Source of the DNA: a virus
IMG/VR virus record: IMGVR_UViG_3300033489_000009
Location: 769-64,768 of that record
DNA: 64,000 nucleotides
Reading direction: 5' to 3' (one strand)
Shown in pieces: positions 22,380 through 37,399 of the stretch (within the stretch, counting starts at the first letter, position 1; each line of letters opens with the position of its first letter). The translations under genes were made by a program, and so were the position numbers. A model generated the notes under the pieces. That model was given only the letters and a program-made list of their open reading frames with translations. It searched no databases and had not been told where the DNA came from.

Positions 22380-22387
22380 TCAGCGGC

Positions 22388-22470: not shown

Positions 22471-22509
22471 TGTAGACGGATCTACAGATCACGTGTAGAG
22501 TGTTCTACA
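22471..22509 (+). promoter_or_regulatory. Leaderless promoter overlapped by two palindromic operators
   Basis: TAGACG-N17-TAGAGT; TGTAGA-N4-TCTACA at 22471-86 and 22494-509; ATG at 22509. Confidence 0.8.
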
Positions 22510-22880
22510 TGACGACGACAGCGGCGATCAGCTACCGGGTCCAGCCGTACCACCCCGAGACCTACACCCATGAGGTCACGGACATGCACTCCTGGACCGT
22601 CACCGCCGCCGATGGCACCGTGATCTCCGAGCTGTACGTCGACATGACCACCCTCGAAGTCCGCAACATCTGGACCCACGAGGACCACCGCGAGCAGGGC
22701 CACGCCACCGCCCTCTGGACCGCAGCCACCGAGATGCTCCCGGTCCGCCACTCCCACGCAGCCCACCGCACCGACGACGGCGACCGGTTCGCTGCCCGCG
22801 TCGGCGGCGAAACTGCCCCCTGTACCGATGACTGCGACTGCGACGCACCCACCGACGACGACTACGACACGGAGGACTGA
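22509..22880 (+). CDS. Minimal GNAT-like acetyltransferase with Cys/acidic tail
   Basis: Motif A-like EVRNIWTHEDHREQGHATALW, then RTDDGDRF; tail CTDDCDCDAPTDDDYDTED. Confidence 0.7.
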   Translation: MTTTAAISYRVQPYHPETYTHEVTDMHSWTVTAADGTVISELYVDMTTLEVRNIWTHEDHREQGHATALWTAATEMLPVRHSHAAHRTDDGDRFAARVGGETAPCTDDCDCDAPTDDDYDTED

Positions 22881-22886
22881 CCCCCC

Positions 22887-23273
22887 ATGAAGAACCCCGC
22901 CTACATCAGCCAGCGCCGCTGCGAGCGGGGCCCCCGCTGGCACGTCGCCGGGACCATCCGGGCAGGCGAGTACAGCGACGCGTACACCACCAGCGCGGCG
23001 GACGCTGAGCGGCTCGCGGACACCTACCAGGCGGACGGCCTGCACCAGGTGCGAGTCACCCCGCCCGTGCAGTACGAGGACCTGTCGGTCGAGGCGAAGC
23101 GGATCGGGGATGCCCTGCTCGCCGCTCGGACCGCCGCGGCAGACCTCCTGCAGCAGGCCGCAGCCATCACCCCGCAAGCCCACGACGAGGGGCTAGGAGT
23201 CGAGGAAACCCGGCTCGCCACGCTGCTCGCCGTGGACCGGATGACGATCCGCAAGTGGCTGGGCAAGCGCTGA
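22887..23273 (+). CDS. Protein with C-terminal HTH
   Basis: Ends GVEETRLATLLAVDRMTIRKWLGKR; GGAGG RBS. Confidence 0.75.
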   Translation: MKNPAYISQRRCERGPRWHVAGTIRAGEYSDAYTTSAADAERLADTYQADGLHQVRVTPPVQYEDLSVEAKRIGDALLAARTAAADLLQQAAAITPQAHDEGLGVEETRLATLLAVDRMTIRKWLGKR

Positions 23274-23279
23274 CCCCGC

Positions 23280-23924
23280 ATGCCCAGCCGCGAGCGTGGA
23301 GTGACCCGCCCTGGTGAGCCTGCACGAATGCCGGCCGCCGGGCGGGTCTGCGGTCAGGATCGGGGTCCCGCATCCTGTGCGGGACCGGTCTGGGCCCGCG
23401 GCTTGTGCCGCCGCCATTACCGGCAGCAGGCCCGCGGCGGCGTGGTCGACGCGGGCGAGCGGGCGGTCGGGGCGCCGTCCGGACATGGCCAGTGGGGGAT
23501 CGTCGACGTCGACGAGGGTGACGGCGGGCGTCTGGTCTGCCACGACTGTGGCCGAACCTTCATTGCACTTGCTGTCCACATCGGGATGGTTCATGACGAC
23601 GTCCACCCCGGCGGGGTCCGTGAGTACAGGCTCCGGCACGGACTCCCGATGAGCGTGTCGCTCATCGCCCGGGATCTGGCCGCGAGGCTGGCTGAGGCGG
23701 CCCGCCCCGCGGCCAGCCGCCTGGCCGCGGTCAGGTCCCCGGACACCCTCGGCGCCCCGCAGGAAATGGTCACGCGTGGACTACGGCTGTCCCGGAGGGT
23801 GGGGCGTCCTCGACCGGATCGGTATCCCGCGATGCCACGAATTGGACCGGAAGCCCTGCGGCCGGTCCCGGACGGCGGTCCCGTCACGCTCCATCCGCGC
23901 GAGTCCCCCGACCACGTCTACTAG
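23280..23924 (+). CDS. MucR/Ros-like zinc-finger regulator
   Basis: N-terminal C..C..ARGLC..HY finger; LVCHDCGRTF..L..HI...H....VREYRLRHGLP..VSL. Confidence 0.7.
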   Translation: MPSRERGVTRPGEPARMPAAGRVCGQDRGPASCAGPVWARGLCRRHYRQQARGGVVDAGERAVGAPSGHGQWGIVDVDEGDGGRLVCHDCGRTFIALAVHIGMVHDDVHPGGVREYRLRHGLPMSVSLIARDLAARLAEAARPAASRLAAVRSPDTLGAPQEMVTRGLRLSRRVGRPRPDRYPAMPRIGPEALRPVPDGGPVTLHPRESPDHVY

Positions 23925-24026
23925 CGAGGCGCCGATTGCGTTTGCGGCGACTGATGCTCCCGTGGACCGCCTCCGATCGGCCCGCGCCGGCAGCCATTCC
24001 CAGATCCTCGCCTCCAGGTCATCCAT
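23781..24026 (-). CDS. Small winged-HTH-like protein, last gene of the Cas operon
   Basis: GGAGG RBS; MDDLEARIWEWL...ANAIGASLVDVVGGLARMERDGTAV...WHRG. Confidence 0.55.
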   Translation of the reverse strand: MDDLEARIWEWLPARADRRRSTGASVAANAIGASLVDVVGGLARMERDGTAVRDRPQGFRSNSWHRGIPIRSRTPHPPGQP

Positions 24027-24031
24027 GGCGT

Positions 24032-25045
24032 CTACCTCCAATCCCCTCGATCGTCGACCCGGACGGATGATGTCGCGGCACGCCGGGACCCCTTCACGAA
24101 TATCAGCGTGTGCTGGTGGCCTCGGCCGAGGCTCCGGCCGGTGCGCATCGCGTGATAGCCGCGCATCGCAGACGTCCCGCACGGTGGGATCAGGACCGCT
24201 GCCGACACCAGATGAAGCCCGGCATCCTCGAATGCGCGGATCGCCATGCCACGCAGATCGATCAGACGCCCATCCCGGGCCCGCACGTCTCCGATGACGA
24301 GGCCCGCGAACCTGTCGGCGCGCAGAGCGCACGCAGCGCCGTCGACGATCCGTCTCAGTGCTCGCTCATACTGATCCACGGTCATGGTCGACAGGTCGGC
24401 CGGATCGTCCGAGTACCTCTCCGTCCAGAGGTAGGGGGGGCATGTCCACACGAAGTCGACGCTGCCCGGATCCAGGGAATCGACCCACCGCGCTGCGTCG
24501 GCGTGCGCCCACTCCGCGGATGTCAGCGAGGGGATCCCTCGCATCGCCAGCTCGGCGCAATGGGCGCGGTTGGCCTCGACCTGGGCTGCCGAAAGATCAC
24601 ACCCGATGTACCGGCGGCCGATGACCGCGGCGACGACTCCCCTGGTGGGGCCCCCGGCGAACGGGTCCAGGATCAGCCACCCCGGCGCCGTCCACCACCG
24701 ATACGCCAGCTCGCACAAGACGGGATCGAATTGGCTGGTCCCGGTGCCGAACGCTCCGCCACCAGCCATGGAAGCCGACTGGCGGTACTGATCGGCCTCG
24801 AACTCGGCGGCCGTCAGATCCCTCCCTGCGGCATCCTTAGCCGCCTGAAACTGCTGGTAATAGCTCGGGTCACGGCTAGTCGCGGTCGACAGCAGGAGAC
24901 GCCCCGGTCGCCCGACACTCGGATCGAGCCCGATGGCAAGCCACTCCTTCCGGCGCGCCTGCCACTTCCCGCGCCGCTGATCGAGCAGGTCGAACGGCGG
25001 CAGGCCGGACAGCCGATCAGTGGCCGAAGGGATCGCAGCGCTCAC
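24032..25045 (-). CDS. SAM-dependent amino-methyltransferase (probably DNA m6A/m4C)
   Basis: TSQFDPVLCE..YRWW, ILDPFAGGPTRG, YIGCDLS and WTCPPY...Y motifs. Confidence 0.85.
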   Translation of the reverse strand: MSAAIPSATDRLSGLPPFDLLDQRRGKWQARRKEWLAIGLDPSVGRPGRLLLSTATSRDPSYYQQFQAAKDAAGRDLTAAEFEADQYRQSASMAGGGAFGTGTSQFDPVLCELAYRWWTAPGWLILDPFAGGPTRGVVAAVIGRRYIGCDLSAAQVEANRAHCAELAMRGIPSLTSAEWAHADAARWVDSLDPGSVDFVWTCPPYLWTERYSDDPADLSTMTVDQYERALRRIVDGAACALRADRFAGLVIGDVRARDGRLIDLRGMAIRAFEDAGLHLVSAAVLIPPCGTSAMRGYHAMRTGRSLGRGHQHTLIFVKGSRRAATSSVRVDDRGDWR

Positions 25046-25767
25046 CTAGGGGTCCTGTCGAGGCGGTCCCGCACGGAGCGGACCTCCGGGTAGTAGGTGT
25101 CCTCCCAGTCGCCGCGTCCATACTCGGCGCCTCTCGACCCACCCAGAGAGGACACCCGCAGCCGATCTCGAGGTATGACCCCACCGAATGACATTGCATA
25201 GGCGGGATGAAGTGGAAGGTCGTGCAGTGCCGCGTACGCCCACACGTCGGCAGACCTCCACCTGATGATCGGCCTGCATGATGTCGCCGTTACTACCCCG
25301 TGGACCGCAGCTGACATCCCGCGCGCCCGCGACTCGTCGGCCCGGAGCCCGGTGATTCGCCTCGGGCTCTCATGCTCCTCCAGCCACCGGTACGGGTTCG
25401 GGCTGGCGATCCCGTACTCACGGTAGGGGGTTGGCCACCGCGCGAGGTAGGCGTCGGCGACGGACTGGCAGTCCGGGTTGCGTAGCCTGTCCGTCCCTTC
25501 CCTGGCCCCGTATGTGACGTATATCAGCTCTATGTCTAGGTCGCGGGCGAGGTGAGCGACCGTGACCGAGTCGCGACCCCAGGAGACTCCGATGTGACAG
25601 GGACCGGCGGCGGCAAACCCTGCGATGCAGGTATGGGCTGCCTCGGCGAGCCGGTCCAGCCTGCGAGCGATGTGGGACGCCCGGACGGTGGCCGCGTCGT
25701 ATCGGGCCAGCCTGGACCACACGGCCCGGTCGTCGCCGGTGAGCCGCGGCGAGTCGATGAGAGCCAT
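25042..25767 (-). CDS. cysH: CysH-like (PAPS reductase family) protein of type IV-B systems
   Basis: PP-loop SWGRDS, ITGLRADESRAR, RPIIRW..ADVWAY...HDLPLHPAY. Confidence 0.88.
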   Translation of the reverse strand: MALIDSPRLTGDDRAVWSRLARYDAATVRASHIARRLDRLAEAAHTCIAGFAAAGPCHIGVSWGRDSVTVAHLARDLDIELIYVTYGAREGTDRLRNPDCQSVADAYLARWPTPYREYGIASPNPYRWLEEHESPRRITGLRADESRARGMSAAVHGVVTATSCRPIIRWRSADVWAYAALHDLPLHPAYAMSFGGVIPRDRLRVSSLGGSRGAEYGRGDWEDTYYPEVRSVRDRLDRTPR

Positions 25768-26492
25768 CAGACGGCCATCCCAGGGGTGACGGGCATCTTG
25801 CGGGTGCCATGCCAGTAGGGGGCCCTGACTGCGCCCGGGACGCCGCGCCCGACGGGGGCCGGGAAGTCGCGGTTCATCCATGCGTCCCGGTCGGCGGGGC
25901 CACCCTCCTGGACCTCGACCTTGAGGACGCGGCCGTTCCCGTGCCCGGTGACCCGGCCGAGGGCCCGGAGCCTGGTCAGGAGGCTGGCGGTGGCGTCCTG
26001 GTCGCCGAGCGCCCACCACGTGACATGGGTGACGAGACGCCCCGGGTAGGTGATGTTGCGGGCCTTGTGCGCGCCGAGCCCATCATGATGCCGGGCATCG
26101 GTCGTGTATCGGGCGTACTCCTGGGTGGGTGGCTTCTTGCGGATCTCGACGGCGGTGGTCCCGTGCTCGGTAAGGACGGCCCGTGAGCAGCACCAGCCCC
26201 ACACGGTGCCGTCGGCGGCAAGCAGGGCCGGATTAGTGCCGGCCGGTGCGGGTCTGGTCCAGGTGGCCAGCGGGACCCTGAAGTCCGCGCACCGGTCCAC
26301 GGTGAGCGGCGGCAGCACAACCCCGGACTCGCGGGCAGCCAGGTAGGCGCAGTACGCGAGCGGCCCGTCCAGATGCATCGGGTCCGCGACAGTGATCACC
26401 GGGTCGGCGATCGTGGCGACCACCCGGAACGGCCGCCACGCCGGGGACGCCACCGTGTCGGCGACATCCCCGACGCGCACGACCCTGCTCAC
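25767..26492 (-). CDS. csf3: Type IV Cas5-like subunit Csf3
   Basis: HLDGPL, W..S.A, and a C-terminal G-loop LGRVTGHGNGRV...W...R..P...RAPYWH. Confidence 0.85.
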   Translation of the reverse strand: MSRVVRVGDVADTVASPAWRPFRVVATIADPVITVADPMHLDGPLAYCAYLAARESGVVLPPLTVDRCADFRVPLATWTRPAPAGTNPALLAADGTVWGWCCSRAVLTEHGTTAVEIRKKPPTQEYARYTTDARHHDGLGAHKARNITYPGRLVTHVTWWALGDQDATASLLTRLRALGRVTGHGNGRVLKVEVQEGGPADRDAWMNRDFPAPVGRGVPGAVRAPYWHGTRKMPVTPGMAV

Positions 26493-27406
26493 GCCCGGAC
26501 CTGCAGCAGCGCCCGGATCGCGTCAGCGTGACCACTCAGGTGGTCGACGTACCGGGCCGCCGCCGCGGACACGTCGCCGGTGAGCTCGGAGGTGTCGGAG
26601 GACACGACAGCGCACCGGCCGAAACCCTGCGCGCCCCTCGCTCCCAGCCGCCACACGCCGCCCGCAGTGACCCGGGTCAGGGCCGCACACAGGGCGTCGA
26701 CCTCGGCAGGGACCGCCGCGTCGACACCGACCTCGAACGCCCACAGGGACCCCGCCTGGATCACCTGCATGTCGTAGATCATCTGCGTTGATGCGGGAGC
26801 TGCATCCCCGAACATGGCCTCCGCGACCAGCCGGTCCACCGAAGAGCCGGTCACGTCGTGGCGGGTCCCGAACTCTTCCCCCATCCAGTCGACCGCGCGC
26901 ATCCCGGCGGACGGGTCACGCATCACGGTGGCCGGGATCCGCCACTCATTCTCCCGGCAGGCCAGGTGCGCGTTGGATACGCGGAGGCTGCCGCGGACGA
27001 TGTCCGACCCCAGCGAGTAGCCGAGCAGCGGCAGGGACGGCAGGAGCGTGTGCCGCTCCGCCATCGCCCGCAGGTCGGTTTGTGCGCCGGTCTCCGTCAA
27101 TGCCCCACCGGACCACAGGAGGTCGACGATCGCCTTCGGGAGACCGTTGTCGGGGACCTGCAGGGTGTCGACGGTGATCCAGGCGAGGGCATCCCGGATG
27201 GCGTGCCGGATCGAGTTGCCGGACACGAACGGGGTGCGGCGACGCTCCCCGTCCGGGCCGACGGAGTCCTGCATGCGCACCAGGGCGGTGTTACCGGCGG
27301 TGCCTGCGCCGTGGTGGATCGGGTCGAGGGCGCGGAGGGTGACGGGGATGCGGGCCGTGACGGTCCGCTGGTAGGTGCCGGCCCCCGCCTCGATGGTGGC
27401 AGTCAT
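26489..27406 (-). CDS. csf2: Type IV Cas7-like backbone Csf2
   Basis: LDPIHHG..TAGNT..R, PFVSGNSIRH.IR, LWSGGAL, LPLLG, QMIY..Q....G and LGARGAQGFGRC G-loop. Confidence 0.9.
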   Translation of the reverse strand: MTATIEAGAGTYQRTVTARIPVTLRALDPIHHGAGTAGNTALVRMQDSVGPDGERRRTPFVSGNSIRHAIRDALAWITVDTLQVPDNGLPKAIVDLLWSGGALTETGAQTDLRAMAERHTLLPSLPLLGYSLGSDIVRGSLRVSNAHLACRENEWRIPATVMRDPSAGMRAVDWMGEEFGTRHDVTGSSVDRLVAEAMFGDAAPASTQMIYDMQVIQAGSLWAFEVGVDAAVPAEVDALCAALTRVTAGGVWRLGARGAQGFGRCAVVSSDTSELTGDVSAAAARYVDHLSGHADAIRALLQVRA

Positions 27407-27852
27407 CAGAACATGGCTCCTGTGTCGTCGGTGGCTGCGGGCGCTGCGGATGTCTTGGTGGCCTTGTCGGCGCGCTTGTCGGCGCGGCGGAGACGCACCA
27501 TCGCCGCGATGTAGACGGCATCCCTTTCTGCGATCCGGCGCCACCGGGCGAACGTGACCGGGTCGGCCAGTGCGGCCTCGATCCCGGCGACCGTCCGGCC
27601 TGTGTGCTCAGGGAGTGTCGCCACCTGCAGTTTCCCGGACATGACGGTGACCATGTCCCGGATGCTGGTGGCGCGCGCTGCCGCAGCGGTCAATGCCGTG
27701 GTGGCGCGCGGCCACCAGTGGGCGACACCGATCGTCGCGACGTCGGCGGCGCCGAGCATCGCGTCGAGCATGTCCTCGGCGACGACAGCGAGAACGTCGT
27801 CGGGGACGTTGGGTGGGAGCCGGTCAGGCCGCGTAGCGGTCGGCGAGGTCAC
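27406..27852 (-). CDS. cas11: Type IV-B small subunit Cas11
   Basis: 148 aa all-helical protein (HWWPR..TAL..AAARA) between csf1 and csf2, the canonical IV-B position. Confidence 0.7.
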   Translation of the reverse strand: MTSPTATRPDRLPPNVPDDVLAVVAEDMLDAMLGAADVATIGVAHWWPRATTALTAAAARATSIRDMVTVMSGKLQVATLPEHTGRTVAGIEAALADPVTFARWRRIAERDAVYIAAMVRLRRADKRADKATKTSAAPAATDDTGAMF

Positions 27853-28561
27853 GGATGGTCTCCTTCGTGGTCATGTGCAGCGCGAGCTGCAGTAGAGGTG
27901 AGTTGGCGTGTGGTGCGACCGTCGGCGACCAGCGCCGCCATGCGGTCAGCCCGTCCCTGGTCAGGGCCGGGACGGTTGGGGTGACGGCGTGGATACTGTC
28001 CGGGTTGTGTCCAGCGAGGCGTAGCGCGGCGCATGCCCCGATCAGAGCCCCGTACTCGGTGGGGGTGGCGTCGACGACGCATCCCTCGATCCGGGCCAGG
28101 ACCAGGGCCGCGCCGGGCGCGTTGACGGGCGTGTACGGGAGGAGGTGTTTCTGGCCTGAGACGGCGATCGTGACCGCCCATACGTCGTCCGGGGGGTCCG
28201 TGAGTGCGGCGATGATCGCGGACTGGTCCTTGCGGTTGCAGAGGTGTAGCCGGCCATCGGATGGGTATGGGGCGGATGGTGCCCCCGTCGGGAGGATGGT
28301 GGCGGCGGTGGTGAGGATCGACCACATCCGTAGTGTCTGCGGCGGTTTCCCGGCGAGGGCCCACGCGCACGGCTCGCACACCGTCGACAGGTCCGGGCGG
28401 GCCGCGGTGAGGATGTCGAAGTTCTTGCCGAGCGCATCCCGCGCCCGTAGGTGCCGGTGGTGGGTCACCCCGCACACCACGCACCCGGCGTCGGCGGCGA
28501 TCGCCTTCGGGTGGGATGGCCCACCGGCTGCGTCCCACGCCATCCGGACCGCCGTCAGCAT
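27824..28561 (-). CDS. csf1: Type IV large subunit Csf1 (Cas8-like)
   Basis: CVVCG...LG.NF...CEPCAWAL.GKPP.TLRMWS and W.V.IA.SGQKH.LPY..VN motifs. Confidence 0.85.
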   Translation of the reverse strand: MLTAVRMAWDAAGGPSHPKAIAADAGCVVCGVTHHRHLRARDALGKNFDILTAARPDLSTVCEPCAWALAGKPPQTLRMWSILTTAATILPTGAPSAPYPSDGRLHLCNRKDQSAIIAALTDPPDDVWAVTIAVSGQKHLLPYTPVNAPGAALVLARIEGCVVDATPTEYGALIGACAALRLAGHNPDSIHAVTPTVPALTRDGLTAWRRWSPTVAPHANSPLLQLALHMTTKETIRDLADRYAA

Positions 28562-29238
28562 GCCGGCACCTGGGCTGGCGCTGGGCGGGCGAGGATGAGA
28601 CCGCACCCGAAACTCTTGTTCCGGCCTACACCCTCGGCCATGAGCGCGTGCATGGCCGGCTCGTCGCAGACCCGGCCCTCGAATCGCAGCAGTGTGTGAT
28701 TCGAATGCTGGACCCGGCCCTCCTTCACCCTGCGGCCGGTCAGGTGCCATGCCCCGGCCATGGTCACGTCGAGCCCGTCGAGGATCCCCGCGAGCCTGCC
28801 CGCCAGCACCTCCACCATCGCCTCCGGCGGGCGGACCGTATGCCGCCGTTTCTCCGACCGGGCGGAGAGTTTCCCCGGGATCTGCCCTGCCGCGACCAGC
28901 TCGCATTCCCGGACCCACTGACTGTGCGACTGGCCTGACTGGCCTGAGTCCATCACGACGGCCCCCGATATCAGGGCCCCGGCGGTCGGCCACCAGTACG
29001 GGCTGTGGGTGGTGTTGATCGCCCACCCTCGGGGCCAGTCCTCACGGGTGATGGGCCGGTCGTGGCGGACGATCAGGACCCTCGGCTTAGGTATGGCCCA
29101 CAGGACGGGCCGGGGCTGCTCCCCAGCGAGGGCGGCCTGGGTGACCAGGTCGTGGAGATGCTTGACGTCCGCCGACCGGGGATCCCGGTCGGTGATCTGC
29201 ACCGTGGTGAGTATCAGTGGGCTTCCTATCGTGTCCAT
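28555..29238 (-). CDS. cas6e: Cas6 (Cas6e-like) RAMP endoribonuclease
   Basis: N-terminal D..HLH, VLW, and C-terminal RFEGRV.D..AM..LM.EGVGRNKSFGCGLI G-loop. Confidence 0.85.
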   Translation of the reverse strand: MDTIGSPLILTTVQITDRDPRSADVKHLHDLVTQAALAGEQPRPVLWAIPKPRVLIVRHDRPITREDWPRGWAINTTHSPYWWPTAGALISGAVVMDSGQSGQSHSQWVRECELVAAGQIPGKLSARSEKRRHTVRPPEAMVEVLAGRLAGILDGLDVTMAGAWHLTGRRVKEGRVQHSNHTLLRFEGRVCDEPAMHALMAEGVGRNKSFGCGLILARPAPAQVPAC

Positions 29239-29240
29239 GG

Positions 29241-29519
29241 TCAGTTCCCCTCATGGCCGTGCTGGTGTCGGTCGCGCCACGCCTCTAGCTCCACTACGCG
29301 GTCCTCGATGGACGGCGGAGGGACAGGTGCTGCCCGCTGGCCCCGGTACGCCTCGACGTCTCCGCGGCGGTACCGGCGGTGGCCGCGGCCGCGCGCGCCC
29401 CCGGGCGTCTGCGAGTAGGGCAGCTCACGTCTGGGGATGCGCCAGACGGTGACTGGATCGACCTGTAGCAGCTTGGCGACTTCACCGGTGCTGAGGGTCT
29501 CGTCGTCGGTGGCGGGCAT
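29241..29519 (-). CDS. MerR-like/excisionase-type (BldC-like) HTH regulator heading the Cas operon
   Basis: LSTGEVAKLLQVDPVTVWR...TPGG...HRRYRRGDVEAY; AAGGAGAGG RBS. Confidence 0.85.
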   Translation of the reverse strand: MPATDDETLSTGEVAKLLQVDPVTVWRIPRRELPYSQTPGGARGRGHRRYRRGDVEAYRGQRAAPVPPPSIEDRVVELEAWRDRHQHGHEGN

Positions 29520-29537
29520 CCCTCTCCTTGGGATCAG

Positions 29538-29635
29538 TGCAAGGTGTGTGCTGGTCGCAAGGGTAGAGGGAGCGGCATTCACGTCGACATCATCGCGCGC
29601 CCCGTGCAAGCCTTGCAAGGGGTGAAAGGTGTGTG
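29538..29635. promoter_or_regulatory. Divergent control region with repeated (T/C)GCAAG motifs
   Basis: TGCAAGG at 29538, CGCAAGG at 29556, inverted repeat TGCAAG-C-CTTGCA at 29605-17 flanked by CCCC/GGGG; AAGGTGTGTG at 29541 and 29626. Confidence 0.6.
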
Positions 29636-29683
29636 TCAGGATCGTCAGGTGACTTCTCCCGACCGCCTGGCTGGTGGTGCCGC

Positions 29684-30420
29684 GTGACCGTCCCCGCCCT
29701 GCAGCTCGCCGACGTGTGCGAGTCGTGCCGGCAGTGCCCCGGCACCCGGTGGATCCTCGGAGGCGACGGTGAGTCGCCGTTCCTGGTCTGCCAGGGCTGC
29801 GCACCGACCCCCCTGTCAGCCTCCGTCCCGCCATCCCCCAGCACGGTTCCCCCGGCCGTGCCGGCGGGGCGGAGGCCCACCAACCAGACCGCCCGGGCCG
29901 TCGCGATCCAGGCCGCCGGGATCAGCACCGTCGGCGTCAGCCTTTGGGCGCTGACCCGCATCGCCGGCGGCGGCACGCTCCTCGTCCTCGGCGCGGAGGC
30001 CAGCGTCCTTTGCCTCGGCTACGCCGCCCGGGCGTTCGGTGGTGCCAGGTGATCCGGGTCATCGCCGCGGCCGCGGTGTTCGTCGCCGGCTGGCTGGTCC
30101 TCGCGACGCAGGGGGAGGCGATCGCGGCGGCCCTTGAGCGGATCGTGCTGGTGCTGGTCGCAGGCGCCGCTGCCCTCACCGTGATCGTCGTCGGTGGCGT
30201 GGTCCTGGTCCGCCGTCTGGTCAGGCCGAGCGAACAGCCGGCACCGCAGGTCCCGGATCACTCCCAGGAGCTCCCAGCGCTGGGAACTGACTGCGCTCGT
30301 GGCTGCGGCCGACCGGGGACCGTGCTGCTCGCCGGGGCCGGTTCCCTGCCGTTTCTGGTCTGCCAGCGGTGCGCCGACGTGCACACCGGCCGCGTCCAGC
30401 CCCGCGGAGCGCGGCCGTGA
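29684..30420 (+). CDS. Two coupled membrane proteins with a shared Zn motif (29684-30052, 30049-30420)
   Basis: Both have hydrophobic helices and a C..C...PFLVCQ.CA motif; GTGA overlap. Confidence 0.6.
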
Positions 30421-30427
30421 ACCGGCT

Positions 30428-30561
30428 CGTTCCGGAAGTACTCATCCGGAACGGCTGCGTTGTGGCGCCGGATCGGGGAGCGCGTCCTGCACCGATGCCG
30501 TTCCGGATGTCCGTTCCAGCCGTCCGGCCGTCCCGATCGGCTCCCGCCCACTTCCGGAACG
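30428..30561. other. Putative res site of the serine resolvase
   Basis: CGTTCCGGA-AGTACTCA-TCCGGAACG inverted repeat (30428-53); half-sites at 30499, 30512 and 30553; directly upstream of the resolvase. Confidence 0.7.
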
Positions 30562-30580
30562 ACAGCGAGGGGGATCTCAG

Positions 30581-31390
30581 ATGACCATGCTCGGCTACGC
30601 CCGCGTGAGCACCACCGACCAGGACCCTGCCCCGCAGGTCGCGCAGCTGCGCGCCGCGGGCTGCGACCGGGTCTTCGTCGAGTCGGCGTCCGGGTACCGC
30701 GATGACCGGCCCGAGCTGGCCGCGCTCCTGGACTACGCGCGGGACGGCGACGTGATCGTCATCTGGCGCCTCGACCGACTCGCCCGCTCCACCACCCACC
30801 TCCTGTCGCTGTCCGCCGATCTCGACAAGCGCGGGATTGGGCTGAAGTCCCTGTCCGACCCGATCGACACGACCTCGGCGACGGGCAGGTTGGTCTACAC
30901 CCTCCTGGCCGCGATCGCCCAGTTCGAGGGTGACCTGCGCCGGGAGCGCCAGCAGATCGCGTGGGAGGCCGGGAAGCCGAAGGGCCGCCCACCGACGCTG
31001 ACCGGCGGCCAGCGCGACCTCGCCGCCCGGCTCCGCGGTGAGGGCAAGTCGCTGGCCGAGATCGGGCGGGCGGTCGGGGCGCCGAAGACGACGATCCACC
31101 GGCACCTCACCGCGCTCCTGGCCGTGATCAGCGGCCGGCGCACCGCCCCGCTCGCCGTGTCCCTGCTCGCGTTCGCGGTGCTCGCAGGGTTTGGCGTCGT
31201 CTCGATGCTTGCGGTCGCTGCCGGCGCGACGTCGCCGCTGCTGCTGCCCGGGCTGGTGGCCACCGCGCTGACGATGCTGGTCTTACAGGGCTGCACCGCC
31301 AGTGCGCCTGCCGGGGCGCGGGGGCCGGTGAGGGTCCGTCCGCCGGTCCGGATCCGCCCGATCATGCCGATGGCGGTGGCCTGGTCATGA
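30581..31390 (+). CDS. Serine resolvase/invertase with HTH and a C-terminal two-helix hydrophobic extension
   Basis: GYARVST.DQ, RPEL, WRLDRLARS, GRPP and HTH, followed by LAVSLLAFAVLAGFGVVSMLAVAAG and LLLPGLVATALTMLVL. Confidence 0.9.
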   Translation: MTMLGYARVSTTDQDPAPQVAQLRAAGCDRVFVESASGYRDDRPELAALLDYARDGDVIVIWRLDRLARSTTHLLSLSADLDKRGIGLKSLSDPIDTTSATGRLVYTLLAAIAQFEGDLRRERQQIAWEAGKPKGRPPTLTGGQRDLAARLRGEGKSLAEIGRAVGAPKTTIHRHLTALLAVISGRRTAPLAVSLLAFAVLAGFGVVSMLAVAAGATSPLLLPGLVATALTMLVLQGCTASAPAGARGPVRVRPPVRIRPIMPMAVAWS

Positions 31391-32178
31391 CGACTCTGCG
31401 CCTGTCCGACCGCTCCCGCTGGCGTGCGGCACGCACCTTGCAGGACCTCGCCGACCTCACCGCGGCGTGGCTGGCTGGGGAGATCCGGTCGCAGCCCGGC
31501 TACTACGGCCGCGTCGATGTCGACGAGGACCGGGCGCCCGGGCTGACCGCCGCGCTGGTGGCCTGCAACAGGGCCGGGTTCCTCACCCGCACCTCCCAAG
31601 CGAGTTACGTCGGGCCCGGCTACCACGGCGCCACCCGCGCGACCGCGCTGGCCGCCGTGCACGGGTACACCGACAGGGACACCGCCCAGCGCCTGTTCTC
31701 GGCGTCCGTCTGGGCCCCGACCCGGGTCCACGTGTTCATTCACCCCATCGGGGCCGGCCGCCTTGGCGAGGACGCCCGTGAGGTGTCGTGGGCTGACGAC
31801 AGGGCCACCTGCTCATTCGGGGGCTGCGTACCGGTCGGCTACCTGCTGGACGAGTTCGCCGGCTGCTCCCGGCACGTGATCGACGCGCTCGCGCACGCAT
31901 GGTCAGTGACGGTCCTCGACCCGGAGCCGGGCCGGAACACGCTCTGGGCGTGGCTCGCCGAGGCCGTGCCTGCGCTCGCCAAGGGCGCCCGGCCAGTCCC
32001 CATCTCCGGCCACCGCGTGCCCGAGTATCCAGACCGGTGCGGATGCGGCGGGATCCTCCGGCCAGCCGACAGGCCGATCTTCGCTCCCGACGGCGGGGCG
32101 CACCTGATCCTCCGCTGCGATCACTGCGGGATCCAGACCCCGATGGACTGGACCTGGCAGCCAGGGGTTGATCGGTGA
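31387..32178 (+). CDS. DUF6919-like protein of actinomycete plasmids/AICEs
   Basis: W..ARTL.DL..LTA.WL.G....QPGY...L...NRAGFLT..SQ, and C-terminal V..IDP..GRN..LW..L-like motif. Confidence 0.65.
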   Translation: MTTLRLSDRSRWRAARTLQDLADLTAAWLAGEIRSQPGYYGRVDVDEDRAPGLTAALVACNRAGFLTRTSQASYVGPGYHGATRATALAAVHGYTDRDTAQRLFSASVWAPTRVHVFIHPIGAGRLGEDAREVSWADDRATCSFGGCVPVGYLLDEFAGCSRHVIDALAHAWSVTVLDPEPGRNTLWAWLAEAVPALAKGARPVPISGHRVPEYPDRCGCGGILRPADRPIFAPDGGAHLILRCDHCGIQTPMDWTWQPGVDR

Positions 32179-32753
32179 TGGCCACCAGCAAGCACCGGAA
32201 GCCTCCCCGGACCCGGACCACGAAGCGCCGGGGGACGACCAGCACCCGTCTCGTCAAGCCCCGCCGCAAGCGGACGGCGGCCCGCAGTCAGAGGGTCGCG
32301 AACTTTTCCCTCTTCAACATCAACTTCGGCGGTACCGGAAGCGGCCGCGGACGGCGCAAGCGCCGCTTCCAGGGCTTCCTGAAGGGCCTGTTCAAGACCG
32401 GGCGGGAGGTCGGCAAGGGGGTCGGCCGGCACATGCCGCAGGCCGGGTGCCTGAACAGCCCAGGGTCCATCCAGAAGGCTGCGGCCCGTACCGGTGGGCG
32501 GCGGCAGCCCAGCAGAGTCACCGGCGCCGGGGCTGGGGCTGCGGCCACGCTCAGCGCGCGCCGCGGGAGCCGGTCGCCTAGGTCGCGGTTCGCCGCGTCC
32601 ATGCCCGGGGCTGGGGGCCAGGCCGGCACGGACCCGCTGGACACCGACGAGGCGATCGAGAACTGGACCGAACGGACGGGCGAGGCGCCCGGCGGGGCCT
32701 GTCCCTGCGGCGGGATCGCACGACACACCGCTGACTGTGAGGTCTGGCAATGA
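32175..32753 (+). CDS. Basic hypothetical protein
   Basis: Arg/Lys-rich ORF coupled between the DUF6919-like gene and traB. Confidence 0.55.
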   Translation: MMATSKHRKPPRTRTTKRRGTTSTRLVKPRRKRTAARSQRVANFSLFNINFGGTGSGRGRRKRRFQGFLKGLFKTGREVGKGVGRHMPQAGCLNSPGSIQKAAARTGGRRQPSRVTGAGAGAAATLSARRGSRSPRSRFAASMPGAGGQAGTDPLDTDEAIENWTERTGEAPGGACPCGGIARHTADCEVWQ

Positions 32754-34957
32754 ACCTGGACGCGGCCAACGGCCACCACGACGGCAGCGCCCTCGATCTC
32801 GAGGAACGCCTCGAGGTCGACGCCCACGACCTGAAGGATTCCCTCGCCCACGAGCCCGGTCACGGTCTGACCGCCGGGGACCTGGAGGCCGGGCAGGTCG
32901 AGGAGGCGGCCGAGCAGGGCCCGGCCGTCGACCCGCCCGCCCGGCGGTCCGCGGCGGTGGACCGGATCCGGGCAAAGGCGGATGCGCGGCGCCGGCCTCT
33001 GGTCCCGGAGTGGATGGCCACCCAGGTCGGCCGGCGCACGGTCACCCGGATCGCCGCGTCAGCGGCCTGGCACTGGACGCTGTACCGGGTGGTGCACCTG
33101 GTCCCGGACCTGGGGCTCCTCGCCTGGTATGCGGTCGTGGGTGCGGGCCGGTTGGCGTGGGGGTCGGTCCAGTTCGTGGGTGACGGTGAGGCGCGGCCGC
33201 TGCGGAAGTCGGCGATCCTGTCCGACGACCACAAGGCGTACATGCTGCTGGTCCGGGAGCGGAACGCTCGGATCTCCCGCCGGCTGGCCGGCGCGACCAC
33301 CCTCGGGCTCCTCGCCCTGCTGGCGGCCGGCCTGCTCGTGTGGCTGGCGCCCGGCTGGCTCACCGGCCCCGTCACGGTCACGGCGGTCATCGGCCTGGTC
33401 CGCGCTGGCCGACCGGTGGGACGGCCGATCCTGTCCCCGGCGACCGTGAAGTCCACGGTCCCGCGGCTGACGTCGGTGGCGATCGTCCGGGCCCTGGCAG
33501 GGGTCGGCATCGGACCGCTCACCACGGGCGCGGCGAAGGGCGAGACGGCCGAGTGGTTCCCCGAGCCGATCACCAGGACCGCCGTCGGCCATGAGGTCGG
33601 GATCGAACTGCCGCACGGCACGACCGCCGCGGAGGTCGCGGACAAGCGGGAGAAGCTGGCCGCCGGTCTGCGCCGCCCGATCGGCTGCGTGTGGCCGATG
33701 GGTGAGCCGCGGGTCCACCCGGGGCGGCTGACCCTGCACGTCCTGGACGCCCCGATGTCGAAGATGGCGCAGCCGCCGTGGCCGCTCGCGAAGACGGGGC
33801 GGTCCGACGTGTTCAAGCCGATCCTCCTCGGCTGGGACCAGCGTGGACGGCCGGTCACCGTCCTCCTCATGTTCTCGAACCTGCTGGTCGGGTCGATCCC
33901 GAGGCAGGGCAAATCGAGGACGGTCCGGGTCCTCATGCTCGCCGCGAGCTTCGATGTCACCTGCGAGCTGCACGACCACGAGTTGAAGGGCACCGATGAC
34001 GACTCGATGTTGGAGCCGTACCTGCACCGGTACACGACCGGCTCCGGGTCGACCGACACACCGGCGATCGAGTCGGTGATGGCCTCGATCCGGGAGGTCG
34101 CCGGCTACCTCGATCCGCGGGCGAAGACGATCGCCCGGGTCTCCCGGGAGAACCCGGCGCGGTGCCCGGACAAGAAGGTCACCCGCGAGCTCGCCGACGA
34201 CCCGGCCCTGAAGTTGCACCCCGTGATCCTGAAGATCGACGAGGTGCACGAACTTTTCGAGACCGAGTTCGCGGCCGAGGCCGAGCAGAAGCTGACCGCG
34301 ATCATCAAGCGTGGCCCCGCGCTGGGGATCATGCTGATCCTGGCCACGCAGCGGCCGGACGCGAAGTCGATCCCTACGGCGATCTCGGCGAACGTTGGCC
34401 TGCGGTTCTGCCTGCGGGTCGGCGGGTGGAAGCCGAACAACCTCGTCCTCGGGGACGGCGCCTACGCGATGGGCATGCGGGCCGACCTTTTCACCGAGGA
34501 CGACAAGGGCTGCGGTCTGCTCCGGGACGGTGGGACGACCGCGCAGACCGTCCGGGGCGCCGACATCGACGGCCCGGACGCGGAGCCCATCGCCCGCCGC
34601 GCGCTGGCTATGCGCACCGCGGCAGGGGTGCTGTCCGGGGATGCGGTCGGCGAGCGCATCGAGCTCGAGCGGGACCAGCTGGAGGTCGTCTTCGACTGCA
34701 TCCGGGTCTTCCGGGACTGCCCCAGCGCCGACGAGTCTGTGTGGCTGCACCAGCTGGAGGAGCTGCTCGCGGAGTGGGCGCCGAGCGAGTACGGGGACCT
34801 GGAGGCACCTTGGTTGGGGGACCGGCTCCGCGCGCTTGGGATCCCGACGATGGCGCAGCGGAAACGGAACATCGACGGGGAGCAGGTCAACCGTGCGGGT
34901 GTGTCCCTGGCGGTTCTTCGGAAGGCCGTGGAGGGCCGCGAGGACGAGGGTCGGTAG
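32750..34957 (+). CDS. traB: TraB-like FtsK/SpoIIIE conjugative DNA translocase
   Basis: N-terminal TM segments, Walker A GSIPRQGKS, Walker B LKIDEVHELF, LATQRP, RFCLRV, and a C-terminal wHTH-like domain. Confidence 0.88.
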   Translation: MNLDAANGHHDGSALDLEERLEVDAHDLKDSLAHEPGHGLTAGDLEAGQVEEAAEQGPAVDPPARRSAAVDRIRAKADARRRPLVPEWMATQVGRRTVTRIAASAAWHWTLYRVVHLVPDLGLLAWYAVVGAGRLAWGSVQFVGDGEARPLRKSAILSDDHKAYMLLVRERNARISRRLAGATTLGLLALLAAGLLVWLAPGWLTGPVTVTAVIGLVRAGRPVGRPILSPATVKSTVPRLTSVAIVRALAGVGIGPLTTGAAKGETAEWFPEPITRTAVGHEVGIELPHGTTAAEVADKREKLAAGLRRPIGCVWPMGEPRVHPGRLTLHVLDAPMSKMAQPPWPLAKTGRSDVFKPILLGWDQRGRPVTVLLMFSNLLVGSIPRQGKSRTVRVLMLAASFDVTCELHDHELKGTDDDSMLEPYLHRYTTGSGSTDTPAIESVMASIREVAGYLDPRAKTIARVSRENPARCPDKKVTRELADDPALKLHPVILKIDEVHELFETEFAAEAEQKLTAIIKRGPALGIMLILATQRPDAKSIPTAISANVGLRFCLRVGGWKPNNLVLGDGAYAMGMRADLFTEDDKGCGLLRDGGTTAQTVRGADIDGPDAEPIARRALAMRTAAGVLSGDAVGERIELERDQLEVVFDCIRVFRDCPSADESVWLHQLEELLAEWAPSEYGDLEAPWLGDRLRALGIPTMAQRKRNIDGEQVNRAGVSLAVLRKAVEGREDEGR

Positions 34958-35060
34958 TGGCTGTCTGCCCTACCGGTAGGGGTGCCTCTACCACCCGGCC
35001 CTACCGGTAAACCCGCAGGTCAGAGGCCATTTCAAGCAAGATCGCAGACTGGTAGGGCAG
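34953..35060. repeat. CTACC/GGTAG repeat cluster downstream of traB
   Basis: Palindrome CCCTACCGGTAGGG (34968-81), CCCTACCGGTA (34999-35009), further CTACC/GGTAG copies. Confidence 0.6.
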
Positions 35061-35100
35061 GGGTCGCGCAGGGCCCCGAAACCGCTCCTGGAGGGGAATC

Positions 35101-35337
35101 GTGCACGTGCTCGTTTTGGCCGCTACCGCTACCGGCGTCGTCGTCGTGCTGGCCGCCGGGTACCTGGGGTGGTGCTGGCTGGTCCCCGGGTACACCTGCC
35201 ACGCTTGCGGCGGTGGCGGGTCTCGCCGGACGCGGATCCTGGGCCGGGAGCGGACCTGCCGGTCGTGTCGGGGGGTCGGTGAGCGGCCCCGGCTGGGCAT
35301 GTATGTGCTCCGCGCGTTGCGGGAGGGGAGCCGGTGA
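35101..35337 (+). CDS. Small membrane protein with CxxCxGxG zinc finger
   Basis: TM helix then CHACGGGG...CRSCRGVG; typical of genes following traB in AICE-like elements. Confidence 0.65.
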   Translation: MHVLVLAATATGVVVVLAAGYLGWCWLVPGYTCHACGGGGSRRTRILGRERTCRSCRGVGERPRLGMYVLRALREGSR

Positions 35338-36470
35338 GTGTGTTGTCGTTGCCGAGGCGTCGGGTGCCCCTGGAGACCGCACGTCGGCTGGCCGGCCAGC
35401 TCGACCGGCCCCAGCCGGCAGATGATCGGGCGAGGCGTCGGCTGGCCGAGGTCGCTTCCCGCGGCGGGACGTGGGCGATGGTCGTGCCCGTCGTCCTGGT
35501 CAACACGTTCGCTGGGATCGGGCAGACGCTGTGGGCGATGGACCACATCTCCCCGGCGCTCGGTGTGCCCGCGGTGCTCACTGCGGTCGGGTTCGCGGCG
35601 ACCCTGGAGTCGATCGCCGTCTACCTGGCCTACCAGGCGCACCGGGCGCTGATGGCCGGTGATGCGGCGCTGCGGCTGCGGGTCGCCTCGTATGCGGCTG
35701 CCGGGACGGTCGGGGCGTTGAACTACTCCCACTGGTCGGCCGACTGGCAGCCGACCGCGGTGGCGATCACGTACACGGGGTTCTCGGTGATCTCGCCGTG
35801 GCTGTGGTCGATCCAGTCGAGGTCGATGCACCGCGCCGAGCTGCGGGCTGAGGACCTGATCGACCCGAGGACGGTCCGGTTCTCGATGGCCCGGTGGACC
35901 CTGTATCCGGTCCGGACGTTCACCGCGTTCCGGGCCGCGGTGTGGGCTGGGGTGGTCGATCCTGCGGTGGCGATCCGGCTGGCCGATCGAGTCGATCCCG
36001 TCCGGTCGATCGACCCCGATCCGGGGGTGTCGATCGAGGCCGGGCACCCCGATCGGATCGACCCCGACATCGAGTCGGCGGCCGTCCCGGATCGGGTCCG
36101 GATCGAGGCCTCGATCGAGTCGATCCAGTCCGCTGCGGATCGACCCGCCGGACCGCCGGTGATCGAAGCTCCGAAGTCGATCGGATCGACCCCGATCCCG
36201 GCCGGGAGATCGACCAGGAAGAAGCCGACCCGGCAGCCCCGGACGGTCGATCAACTGGCCGTCGAGTTGGCCGCTGAGATCGAGTCGGGTGGCCTCGATC
36301 TGGCACCGTCGGCTGAGGCGATCCGGCGGCGGCTCAAGTGCGCTCCCGCCACTGCCAGGGAGCTGCGGGATCGGCTCGCGAGTGGGGACGCTCCAGCCGG
36401 ATCGGCCCCGGTGTTGGAAGTTACCGACGACGCTCCAAGCGCGACCCAGGAAGGAACACTGACCCCATGA
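35334..36470 (+). CDS. DUF2637 / Spd-like membrane spread protein with C-terminal HTH
   Basis: Four TM helices, ES.A.YL..AH.AL..GD.A..LR.ASY, GALNYSH; C-terminal PSAEAIRRRLKCAPATARELRD. Confidence 0.75.
   Translation: MSVLSLPRRRVPLETARRLAGQLDRPQPADDRARRRLAEVASRGGTWAMVVPVVLVNTFAGIGQTLWAMDHISPALGVPAVLTAVGFAATLESIAVYLAYQAHRALMAGDAALRLRVASYAAAGTVGALNYSHWSADWQPTAVAITYTGFSVISPWLWSIQSRSMHRAELRAEDLIDPRTVRFSMARWTLYPVRTFTAFRAAVWAGVVDPAVAIRLADRVDPVRSIDPDPGVSIEAGHPDRIDPDIESAAVPDRVRIEASIESIQSAADRPAGPPVIEAPKSIGSTPIPAGRSTRKKPTRQPRTVDQLAVELAAEIESGGLDLAPSAEAIRRRLKCAPATARELRDRLASGDAPAGSAPVLEVTDDAPSATQEGTLTP
35850..36255. repeat. Dense GATCGA/TCGATC repeat cluster inside the spd-like gene
   Basis: More than a dozen copies of GATCGA or TCGATC (often GATCGACCC) in about 400 bp, in both orientations. 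Confidence 0.75.
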
Positions 36471-36766
36471 CCCAGCACACGCCGCTGCCAGGACCGATCG
36501 CCGTAGACCCGTACAGCGAGCTCCTTGACCTAGCGAACGCCCAATCCCCGGGCGGTGACATCACCCCGGCCGGGGAAGTGGCCCGGGCCATGCTCGGCGC
36601 AGCCCTGGACGGGATCCAGGTCGGCTCCTACGACGAGCAGGTCATCGCGTGGCTGCAGGGGCGGGATGCGTCGACGATTGCGGTGGTGGCGTCGTTGTTG
36701 CGGCGGGCGTGGACGGCGGGTCTGGCGGCTGGGCGGATGGAGATCCGGGAAGAGCGGACCCGCTGA
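36467..36766 (+). CDS. Hypothetical protein typical of actinomycete plasmids
   Basis: GSYDEQVIAWL...DASTIAVVASLLRRA motif; AGGAAGGA RBS. Confidence 0.6.
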   Translation: MTQHTPLPGPIAVDPYSELLDLANAQSPGGDITPAGEVARAMLGAALDGIQVGSYDEQVIAWLQGRDASTIAVVASLLRRAWTAGLAAGRMEIREERTR

Positions 36767-36773
36767 AGGCTAG

Positions 36774-36826
36774 TTGACGCCATCGTTTATTACCGCTAGA
36801 GTTGAGTTAACGACATCGGATAACTC
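36774..36826 (+). promoter_or_regulatory. Principal-sigma promoter with downstream inverted repeat
   Basis: TTGACG (36774-79), N17, TAGAGT (36797-802); GAGTTA-N11-TAACTC at 36804-26. Confidence 0.8.
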
Positions 36827-36842
36827 GACACCGGAGGACACC

Positions 36843-37196
36843 GTGACCGACTACTTCGCAGCCAAGGCCCGCAGCGTCTTCACCGCAGCCTCCGGCGACC
36901 CGGACCTCAGCGGCCCGCTCGCCGCCTGGGCACGATACGCGCACGGTGTCGGCGACTCCCGCCGCGGAGTCATCGTCAGCGAGACCGGCGAGATCCTGGC
37001 CGAGACGCGCCACACCCCCGCCACGATCAGCACCCCCGGCGCCACCTACGCCACGTCGGGCGGCGAGCGCGTGCAGGACCGCGAGCTGGGCCTGGCCATG
37101 GCCGCGTTGGAGAGCCGCACGGGCCGCCACTGCATCCACGTCAAGTACTGGCAGGTCTGCACCGGGGCGAGCCGCTTCACGCCGGCCTCCCGGTGA
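36843..37196 (+). CDS. Hypothetical protein
   Basis: GGAGG RBS and GTG start, first gene after the promoter. Confidence 0.7.
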   Translation: MTDYFAAKARSVFTAASGDPDLSGPLAAWARYAHGVGDSRRGVIVSETGEILAETRHTPATISTPGATYATSGGERVQDRELGLAMAALESRTGRHCIHVKYWQVCTGASRFTPASR

Positions 37197-37399
37197 CCAC
37201 CGAGACCAAGCGTCGTCCCGGCCGCCCCACCGTGGGCGGCCGGGTCACGGTCTCCCTGGGCTCCGAACGGGTGGCCAGGCTGAAGGCTGCCGCCGACCTC
37301 GCTGGGGTCAGTTTCCCGGTGATGCTCCGCAGGTGCATCGACACGGCACTGGCAGGGCGGGATGGCCACGAGCAGGAGAACCCAGGGGGGCGGTTGTGA
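37193..37399 (+). CDS. Ribbon-helix-helix-like DNA-binding protein
   Basis: PGRPTVGGRVTVSLG..RVARLKAAADLAGVSFPVMLRRCIDTAL. Confidence 0.65.
   Translation: MTTETKRRPGRPTVGGRVTVSLGSERVARLKAAADLAGVSFPVMLRRCIDTALAGRDGHEQENPGGRL

Follow-up and report, generated by a model that had tools for sequence, protein, structure and literature searches.

A putative two-way control region between a type IV-B operon and a tra-like operon in a tailed phage

Introduction

Streptomyces plasmids carry traR and traB as a kil-kor pair, in which the gene for the GntR-type repressor (TraR/KorA) is transcribed away from the transfer genes (PMC4447253). Repeats between traR and spdB3 are bound by TraR, which has a long, traB-containing transcript under its control and is required for traB to be tolerated (PMC4447253). 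Here, a divergent gene arrangement resembling this pair was analysed in a virus genome, IMG/VR record IMGVR_UViG_3300033489_000009. The window, i.e. the whole stretch under analysis, comprises 64,000 nt (positions 769 to 64,768 of the record), and all coordinates refer to it. Within the window, a leftward operon of type IV-B cas genes, headed by the gene of a small helix-turn-helix (HTH) protein, faces a rightward tra-like operon across a gap of 164 bp (29520-29683).

Two other kinds of regulator and one kind of cas locus are relevant for comparison. BldC binds 9-bp direct repeats head-to-tail, in a 2:1 or 4:1 ratio (PMC5859096). Gp36 of mycobacteriophage D29 is a MerR-like repressor which acts on GC-rich direct repeats and lowers the expression of downstream phage genes (PMC12266134). 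Type IV-B loci are found on actinobacterial plasmids and sometimes in prophages (PMC7038947, PMC8175902), and they are devoid of Cas6, with 12 exceptions reported (PMC7038947).

We lean slightly towards the view that the gap is the TraR/KorA-like kil-kor region of a phage-borne tra-like operon, in which the DNA-binding half of the regulator and the operators were exchanged, and into which the type IV-B genes were plugged as cargo.

Results

Motifs and predicted promoters in the divergent gap

The HTH gene starts with an ATG at 29519 (minus strand), preceded by the Shine-Dalgarno sequence AAGGAGAGGG. On the other side, a gene for a Cys-rich protein starts with a GTG at 29684 (plus strand), and the same start is kept in a sister phage, IMGVR_UViG_3300037483_000693. 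A first-pass annotation had placed the two operon starts about 165 bp apart, with four (T/C)GCAAG motifs and two copies of a longer repeat between them, and all three observations held. YGCAAG was found on the plus strand at 29538, 29556, 29605 and 29614, with a palindromic minus-strand copy at 29612. The exact sequence AAGGTGTGTG occurred twice in the whole 64 kb, at 29541 and 29626, both times inside the gap. The density of GCAAG was the highest of the window (5 per 164 bp, versus 80 in 64 kb). When the gap was shuffled 5000 times with its dinucleotides preserved, 9.8% of the shuffles had a 5-mer at least four times, 2.0% an exact repeat of at least 10 nt, and 0.4% both together, which gives the motifs moderate support.

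Stronger support comes from their recurrence. The upstream regions of four homologous HTH genes on other contigs (loci L086, L087, L092 and L093) aligned with the window over ~150 nt, and the motif layout is repeated there, which in our view outweighs the shuffle statistics. GCAAG and GGTGTG motifs were not found upstream of cas6 in five relatives of the cas cassette, and therefore the motifs are not part of that cassette.

The comparison of the five HTH loci pointed to a pair of promoters with a common -35 element. The palindrome CCTTGCAAGG (29611-29620) contains a TTGCAA (29613-29618) that reads as a -35 on both strands; it is kept as TTGCAA, TCGCAA, TAGCAA or GTGCAA in the five loci, with spacers of 17-18 nt in both directions. 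For the leftward HTH-cas promoter, the predicted -10 is GATGAT (29589-29594, minus strand), with a predicted 5' untranslated region of ~60-70 nt. It lies at the same distance in all five loci (GATGAT, GATGAT, CATCAT, GACAGT and CATCAT), 63-78 nt ahead of the start codon. For the rightward promoter, an extended -10 (TGT CAGGAT; 29634-29642, plus strand) is predicted. Its counterparts in the five loci are TGn followed by CAGGAT, CATGCT, CATGCT, CAGGGT and CAGGGT, and in all of them exactly 6 nt separate the box from a start codon. This geometry was matched by script in three of the five loci, and read by eye in L086 and L092 (17-nt spacer). A box, 6 nt and a start codon are what a leaderless transcript would show. 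In the window, the start codon is GTG 29649, which opens a 12-codon mini open reading frame (VTSPDRLAGGAA plus stop codon; 29649-29687, plus strand), predicted to be translated without a leader as in the relatives. The mini-frame was made at a mosaic joint, and its stop overlaps the GTG at 29684.

Read in the direction of the HTH gene, the motifs of the first-pass annotation resolve into tandem 9-bp CTTGCA units. They form two predicted operator arrays, both on the minus strand. O1 (29602-29637) has four tandem 9-mers (GACACACAC, CTTTCACCC, CTTGCAAGG and CTTGCACGG), includes the motifs at 29605, 29614 and 29626, and extends over the common -35, the greater part of the rightward spacer and, of the rightward -10, the first base. 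The exact pattern CTTGC-N4-CTTGC occurs once in the window, within O1. O2 (29535-29561) has three tandem 9-mers (CTTGCGACC, AGCACACAC and CTTGCACTG) and includes the motifs at 29538, 29541 and 29556. It is located in the 5' untranslated region of the HTH gene, adjoining the Shine-Dalgarno sequence, and is part of a 25-nt direct repeat, D1, with 76% identity. Because the promoter geometry is kept in five HTH loci and tandem 9-bp repeats lie over the shared -35, both promoters and the operators of the regulator very probably lie together in a single compact region, in agreement with the earlier proposal of a single small control region for both operons. Shared control of the two operons by the HTH protein is therefore plausible.

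The regulator and its homologs

The first leftward gene (29241-29519, minus strand) encodes a 92-aa HTH_17 protein (PF12728, E=2.9e-8; 34.3 bits, cutoff 27). It had been annotated as BldC/MerR-like, and BldC was indeed the closest fold. The AlphaFold model (confidence score pLDDT 91) had its best PDB matches in the BldC-DNA complexes 6AMA and 6AMK, at 40% identity and a root-mean-square deviation of 1.5 Å over 53 columns. Against the excisionase profile TIGR01764 ('excise'), it scored 13.9 bits, with a cutoff of 28.8.

A full HMMER search returned full-length homologs with 50-57% identity and a common C-terminal WRxRH helix. A word-based protein search with the HTH protein returned only itself, and scans of viral contigs with Cas6, with the HTH protein and with the GntR-like gene of the sister phage returned nothing or the query itself. 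An alignment of 14 HTH sequences was too diverse for scanning, and one of 5 sequences gave three distant, N-terminal-only matches (L089-L091).

Three of the four homolog loci again have the HTH gene at the head of one arm of a divergent junction, with 122-139 bp between the arms. The contig of the fourth, L093, ended ~176 nt upstream of the HTH gene, and the divergent partner is represented there by a predicted start codon only. The opposite gene was of the WhiB family in two loci (L087:1476-2015 and L092:587-817), and in one of them the WhiB domain was joined to a weak HTH_17 match within the same protein. The pairing points to a two-way switch of the BldC-like/WhiB-like kind that may recur in actinobacterial mobile elements. 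The Cys-rich protein of the window was unrelated to the WhiB partner in L087.

Mosaic joints between the phage and its sister

The virus record is 64,944 bp long with direct terminal repeats, and the window covers nearly all of it. A large terminase, a portal protein, a head protease, a decoration-like protein and a tape measure protein are encoded. Based on the terminal repeats and the terminase, portal, protease and tape measure genes, the record represents a complete tailed phage. It has a GC content of ~70%, and its closest protein relatives are from actinomycetes.

The sister phage (locus L004; record of 64,136 bp, rated ~70% complete by CheckV) was collinear and mosaic relative to the window. 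Identity was 93% over the integrase region (21185-22383) and 88% over 29656-38040, which includes the entire tra-like block. No similarity was picked up by BLASTN for 22384-29655, and Csf2 was absent from the sister's record at its ~70% completeness. Between integrase and tra-like block (L004:1305-6930), the sister carries a leftward operon with genes for ParB_N-like, PAPS_reduct+DUF3440 (IbrA-like), Imm_superinfect and two unknown-family proteins. The operon is led by a 108-aa GntR-type regulator (PF00392, E=1e-12), a winged HTH without effector domain. The sister's divergent gap is 131 bp long and has 3 GTGCAC palindromes, versus 26 in 64 kb. On its other side, a plus-strand HTH_17 gene precedes the Cys-rich gene, and its stop overlaps the GTG of the latter. 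As a separate observation, a gene of the PAPS-reductase family is found in the integrase/tra-like slot of both phages.

Local alignment revealed an island of common backbone inside the region that BLASTN had left blank (29225-29291, minus strand; L004 6273-6345; 67 bp, ~80% nucleotide identity). In the window, the island holds the C-terminal helix of the regulator (ELEAWRDRH.., the last 16 residues, ~77-92), its stop codon, and MDTIG, the first five codons of the next gene, cas6. In the sister, the same island holds the C-terminal helix of the GntR-type regulator and, next to it, the MDTIG with which the Imm gene starts. To its left lies a swapped cargo segment, A (22384-29224), with three plus-strand genes followed by the leftward genes from MTase-like to cas6e-like; it has no similarity to the sister. 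To its right lies a swapped module, B (29292-29655), with the HTH_17 DNA-binding domain and the predicted two-way promoter and operators, homologous to the four HTH loci and not to the sister. Three backbone pieces (integrase, island and tra-like block) thus frame two independently exchanged inserts, as judged from these alignments.

Both joints could be placed narrowly. The right joint is inside the gap, at ~29652-29656: similarity to the HTH relatives stops at ~29651 and similarity to the sister starts at ~29656, which fixes its position within a few bases. The window still reads DRLAGGAA plus stop codon at 29661-29687, a remnant of the last 8 codons of the sister's plus-strand HTH_17 gene (DYLAGGAA plus stop codon). 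These codons belong to the Pfam domain of the sister's HTH_17 protein, an argument for the window being the derived state at this joint. An origin of the window's HTH gene by inversion of that plus-strand gene was rejected, with only 9 of the 16 recognition-helix residues in common. The left joint is at ~29225, inside the first codons of cas6. Relatives of Cas6 begin at residue 8 of the window's protein, so the cas cassette was fused in frame behind the start of the resident second gene. The GTGCAC palindromes of the sister fit its GntR-type domain and the window has CTTGCA units, which suggests that each DNA-binding half travelled with its own repeats.

The csf and tra-like blocks in other genomes

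According to the first-pass annotation, both operons may have arrived as one plasmid-derived cassette, and homologous csf and tra blocks should then be linked elsewhere. A survey covered 23 other csf loci (8 viral or metagenome contigs and 15 actinobacterial genomes), with flanks of up to 10 kb; several of the contigs were 2-5 kb long. In the fetched flanks, a TraB homolog was found at 0/23 and an HTH homolog also at 0/23 loci. Conversely, 0/52 loci with TraB-like genes (379 kb in total) had a cas, csf, cysH or MTase homolog. In the data within reach, the linkage never occurred.

Other results also contradicted the cassette. The sister has the tra-like block without csf, and the complete phage IMGVR_UViG_3300046115_000153 (L003/G001; 99,865 bp, with terminal repeats) has csf genes and no TraB anywhere. 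This distant relative, whose terminase has ~67% nucleotide identity, carries the same six-gene cassette (cas6e-like to cysH) ~5 kb from its terminase gene, a genomic position unlike that in the window. Homology breaks at the two joints described above, within the gap and within the first codons of cas6. No tblastn match to Csf2 of this clade was found in PLSDB (72,556 plasmids), and among phages there was a single weak match, in Skermania phage SPI1 (27.7% identity). The closest Csf2 relatives (68-80% identity) were in phage-like contigs, in co-directional arrays with RusA, Lsr2, Gp3-like and RNase_T genes. The lack of a PLSDB match, the phage-like gene arrays of the closest relatives and the lack of linkage to TraB together characterize the cas cassette as a phage-borne cargo unit. 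A common origin of the csf and tra-like blocks was rejected on account of the sister, the joints and the missing co-occurrence.

A megablast of 23280-36766 against plasmids and phages gave no match. Neither did tblastn of TraB against 50,697 phage records; a viral-contig scan with the recombinase found the sister only, and a metagenome scan with DUF6919 found nothing.

Gene content of the two operons

The eight minus-strand genes from HTH to MTase-like (methyltransferase-like) overlap or are at most 2 nt apart. The regulator gene is followed by a Cas6e-like gene (28555-29238, PF08798; its native start in relatives corresponds to residue 8), csf1 (27824-28561, 245 aa; 7 nt from its ATG at 28561 onwards are shared with the end of cas6), a cas11-like gene (27406-27852, 31-68% identical to relatives), csf2 (cas7; 26489-27406, 305 aa; NCBIfam csf2 26.4 bits, cutoff 130) and csf3 (cas5; 25767-26492; TIGR03116 E=6.7e-16, 58.6 bits, cutoff 140; PF27782 on homologs). 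Next are a cysH-like gene of the PAPS-reductase family (25042-26019, PF01507 E=2.9e-8), whose start is uncertain, and the MTase-like gene (24032-25045, PF01555 E=1.1e-6), the last of the operon. The designation as a IV-B operon was thus correct with regard to architecture. The csf1, cas11, csf2 and csf3 genes are in the order typical of type IV-B, the full order is kept in 23 homologous loci, and the cysH-like gene is next to csf3 in the relatives too. No repeats like those of CRISPR arrays were found by Tandem Repeats Finder in the whole 64 kb, as is typical of the array-less type IV-B. The Cas6e-like gene departs from the type, and it was found upstream of csf1 in most relatives of the clade that reach far enough (L003, L014-L019, L023, L024 and L027-L034).

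At its longest, the cysH-like frame reaches ~250 nt into the 3' end of csf3 (25767-26019), and tblastn similarity to relatives begins inside the overlap; it may be an artefact of open frames at high GC or a real long overlap. Of 24 loci, 7 (window, L002, L022, L025, L027, L030 and L031) have an MTase-like gene along with cysH, mostly after it, and before it in two Corynebacterium loci.

On the plus strand, the Cys-rich small protein (29684-30052) is the first conserved product; it is 80% identical in the sister and has no family match. It is followed by a serine recombinase (30194-31390; Resolvase domain, PF00239 E=1.9e-37, plus HTH), a DUF6919 protein (31387-32178), a 192-aa protein of unknown family (32175-32753), a TraB-like FtsK/SpoIIIE ATPase of 735 aa (32750-34957), and three genes at 34982-36766 for a 147-aa protein, a membrane protein with a weak DUF2637 match and a 142-aa protein. 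The ATPase was 39% identical to FtsK of a Streptomyces plasmid and of a Pseudonocardia plasmid, both with adjoining DUF2637 genes. Its Walker A motif (GK 387-388) and DE (497-498) were invariant among 12 homologs. Against NCBIfam plasmid_TraB it reached 18.4 bits (cutoff 800), and no clt repeats were identified. The earlier label 'tra operon' is better reduced to 'tra-like' for the block, in which the TraB-like ATPase is found together with the weak DUF2637 match and with serine recombinase and DUF6919 genes.

Homologs of the 142-aa protein (36338-36766) were found near TraB-like genes in 6 of 52 loci, and for this reason it is probably a real member of the transfer/spreading set. The closest plasmid TraB-like gene, with DUF2637, is on pPaSha2 of Pseudonocardia alni (CP052773.1, L006), a 41.9-kb circular element with Bet recombinase and holin genes that may be a phage-plasmid. 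Directly after the last tra-like gene (36774-36802), there is a good sigma-70-like site (TTGACG, 17 nt, TAGAGT), which could start a separate transcript for a GmrSD_C/HNH gene and the genes downstream.

No tRNA was found in the window and no Rfam family in 29200-30100. The convergent end at 23900-24060 showed no significant RNA structure (z = +1.18). At 15033-15246, repeats that can form hairpins follow each other in tandem, at periods of 24 and 45 nt (e.g. GGTTGCCCCC..GGGGGGCAAC), a spacing too short for a CRISPR array.

Discussion

The proposed switch

In the model we favour, the palindrome at 29611-29620 would provide a single -35 for both directions. From the GATGAT -10, the leftward transcript would carry the regulator and seven cargo genes (cas6e-like, csf1, cas11, csf2, csf3, cysH-like and MTase-like). 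From the extended -10, the rightward transcript would start without a leader at GTG 29649, with the 12-codon frame translationally coupled to the Cys-rich gene, and would run on into the recombinase, DUF6919, TraB-like and DUF2637-like genes. The regulator probably binds the 9-mers of O1 and O2 head-to-tail, and would thereby repress itself with the cargo and the tra-like operon simultaneously. As to history, an operon led by a regulator gene may already have run leftward, opposite the tra-like operon, in the phage lineage. The HTH_17 DNA-binding half with promoter and operators, and the Cas cargo, would then have come in by two separate exchanges, the cargo being joined in frame to the five opening codons of the resident second gene. 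By analogy, expression of the Cas cargo would go with that of the repressor and not with that of the transfer genes, except in an unrepressed burst on entry.

Several points weigh against this model. The likeness to kil-kor regions is one of architecture. The window's regulator falls short of a full-length GntR/TraR protein, and toxicity (kil) would be presumed for the TraB-like ATPase. The regulator also differs from BldC. It scored 28.7 bits against NCBIfam HTH_BldC (NF033787; cutoff 77), its model has an additional C-terminal helix (residues 71-88), and its candidate repeats are devoid of the AATT core needed by BldC. A generic sigma-70 scan called no promoter in the gap, including the leftward -10, so that both -10 boxes are weak by the standards of E. 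coli. A separate promoter could lie in the 141 bp ahead of the recombinase gene (30053-30193), in which case TraB may not depend on the 164-bp region. The HTH homologs are on short metagenome contigs that may come from any type of element, and with only one sister genome, no more than two genomes bear on the order of the exchanges.

Alternative explanations

The motifs might serve the HTH-cas operon only, while the tra-like genes use promoters of their own, e.g. before the recombinase gene, and there is no co-regulation. We regard this as possible but doubtful. All motifs are on the HTH-module side of the right joint, the recombinase gene has 141 bp of free space ahead of it, and the native first gene of the tra-like operon (the sister's plus-strand HTH_17 gene) was lost with its promoter. 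Nevertheless, the rightward -35, the extended -10 and the start codon 6 nt on are intact as in four relatives, the mini-frame retains its stop/start coupling to the Cys-rich gene, and the sigma-70 scan found no promoter-like site at 30053-30193. If co-regulation is accepted, a further step can be considered, although we think it rather unlikely: the BldC-like protein would be the Kor-type repressor of a phage TraB module, and in a naive cell newly entered through infection or TraB transfer, both promoters would fire before repressor builds up, so that Csf, CysH-like and MTase proteins are made along with the transfer and spreading proteins. If true, such a joint burst would tie type IV-B function to the establishment of incoming DNA. 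Another explanation, that of the first-pass annotation, is the travelling plasmid-derived cassette, in which type IV-B would act in conjugative entry, e.g. by protecting transferred DNA. The blocks are adjacent and divergent around one regulator, type IV-B is reported mostly from actinobacterial plasmids (PMC7038947), and with an autoregulated repressor, both operons would be expected to fire together in a naive cell. Even so, this explanation is very improbable in view of the sister's tra-like block without csf, the joints inside the gap and cas6, the complete phage with csf and no TraB, the missing co-occurrence in both surveys, and a Csf2 clade with its closest relatives in phage-like contigs and no match in PLSDB; the origin it implies is already contradicted.

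It has little going for it, too, that the HTH protein would serve as a recombination directionality factor or excisionase, with the repeats as its binding sites within a recombination site of a neighbouring serine or tyrosine recombinase. HTH_17 is an excisionase-type fold, Xis proteins bind direct repeats as well, Pukovnik Xis is among the structural matches (rank 46), and a serine recombinase gene and an integrase are 0.7 kb and 7 kb off. The protein stays well below the TIGR01764 cutoff, however, and homologous HTH loci have the same layout with WhiB genes opposite and no recombinase called nearby. In either direction, the conserved boxes are spaced as in a promoter, and the HTH gene is translationally packed with the cas genes. 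Least probable of all is that the repeats arose by chance in an intergenic stretch poorer in GC: while the shuffles produced the 5-mers or the 10-nt repeat singly now and then, they rarely produced both, and chance would have to account for the same layout in four loci whose proteins are only ~50% identical.

Significance

The attractive but wrong idea of a travelling csf and traB cassette is thereby removed, and a testable one takes its place. Before its TraB-like operon, a tailed phage seems to maintain a kil-kor switch of the plasmid kind, in which the regulator half with its operators and the cargo were exchanged separately, at very precise joints. The two phages offer a natural heterologous pair, HTH_17 with CTTGCA repeats in the window and a GntR-type protein with GTGCAC repeats in the sister, and the window provides defined sites in the form of two 9-mer arrays and two predicted transcription starts, the leftward one near 29582 and the rightward one at 29649. 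The locus further illustrates a way for a type IV-B system without an array to be connected to a regulatory circuit that a phage already has, which bears on the timing of its expression and not on type IV-B function.

Comparison with known systems

The TraR/KorA-TraB systems of pSVH1 and pIJ101 (PMC4447253) share with the window a small regulator gene (of a predicted repressor in the window) divergent from an operon with an FtsK-like TraB, and an intergenic region of ~130-165 bp filled with repeated boxes. The sister phage has the same architecture, and even a GntR-type DNA-binding domain. The window differs in its regulator, which is not of GntR type but a 92-aa BldC-like HTH_17 protein without effector domain. 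It is also on a tailed phage, its regulator gene leads a 5.5-kb cargo operon, and serine recombinase and DUF6919 genes are included in the rightward operon.

Streptomyces BldC (6AMA, 6AMK; PMC5859096) is the best structural match to the modelled winged-helix domain of the regulator, which likewise has no effector domain and has candidate 9-bp direct repeats in arrays of 2-4. It differs by its score below the NCBIfam cutoff, its CTTGCA-type repeats without AATT, its extra helix, its being encoded by a phage and its position at a predicted two-way promoter. Gp36 of D29 is likewise a small phage-encoded MerR-like regulator, with another genomic setting and other targets; this likeness is by description. 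Excisionases are set apart by the TIGR01764 score and by homolog loci without an adjacent recombinase. Compared with described type IV-B loci (PMC7038947, PMC8175902, PMC7937560), the window has the same gene set and order, is array-less and is part of a mobile element of an actinobacterial host; it adds Cas6e-like and MTase-like genes, is phage-borne, and has its cas genes placed behind a foreign regulator. The locus is a variant of a known control design, situated at a hotspot of modular exchange in a phage.

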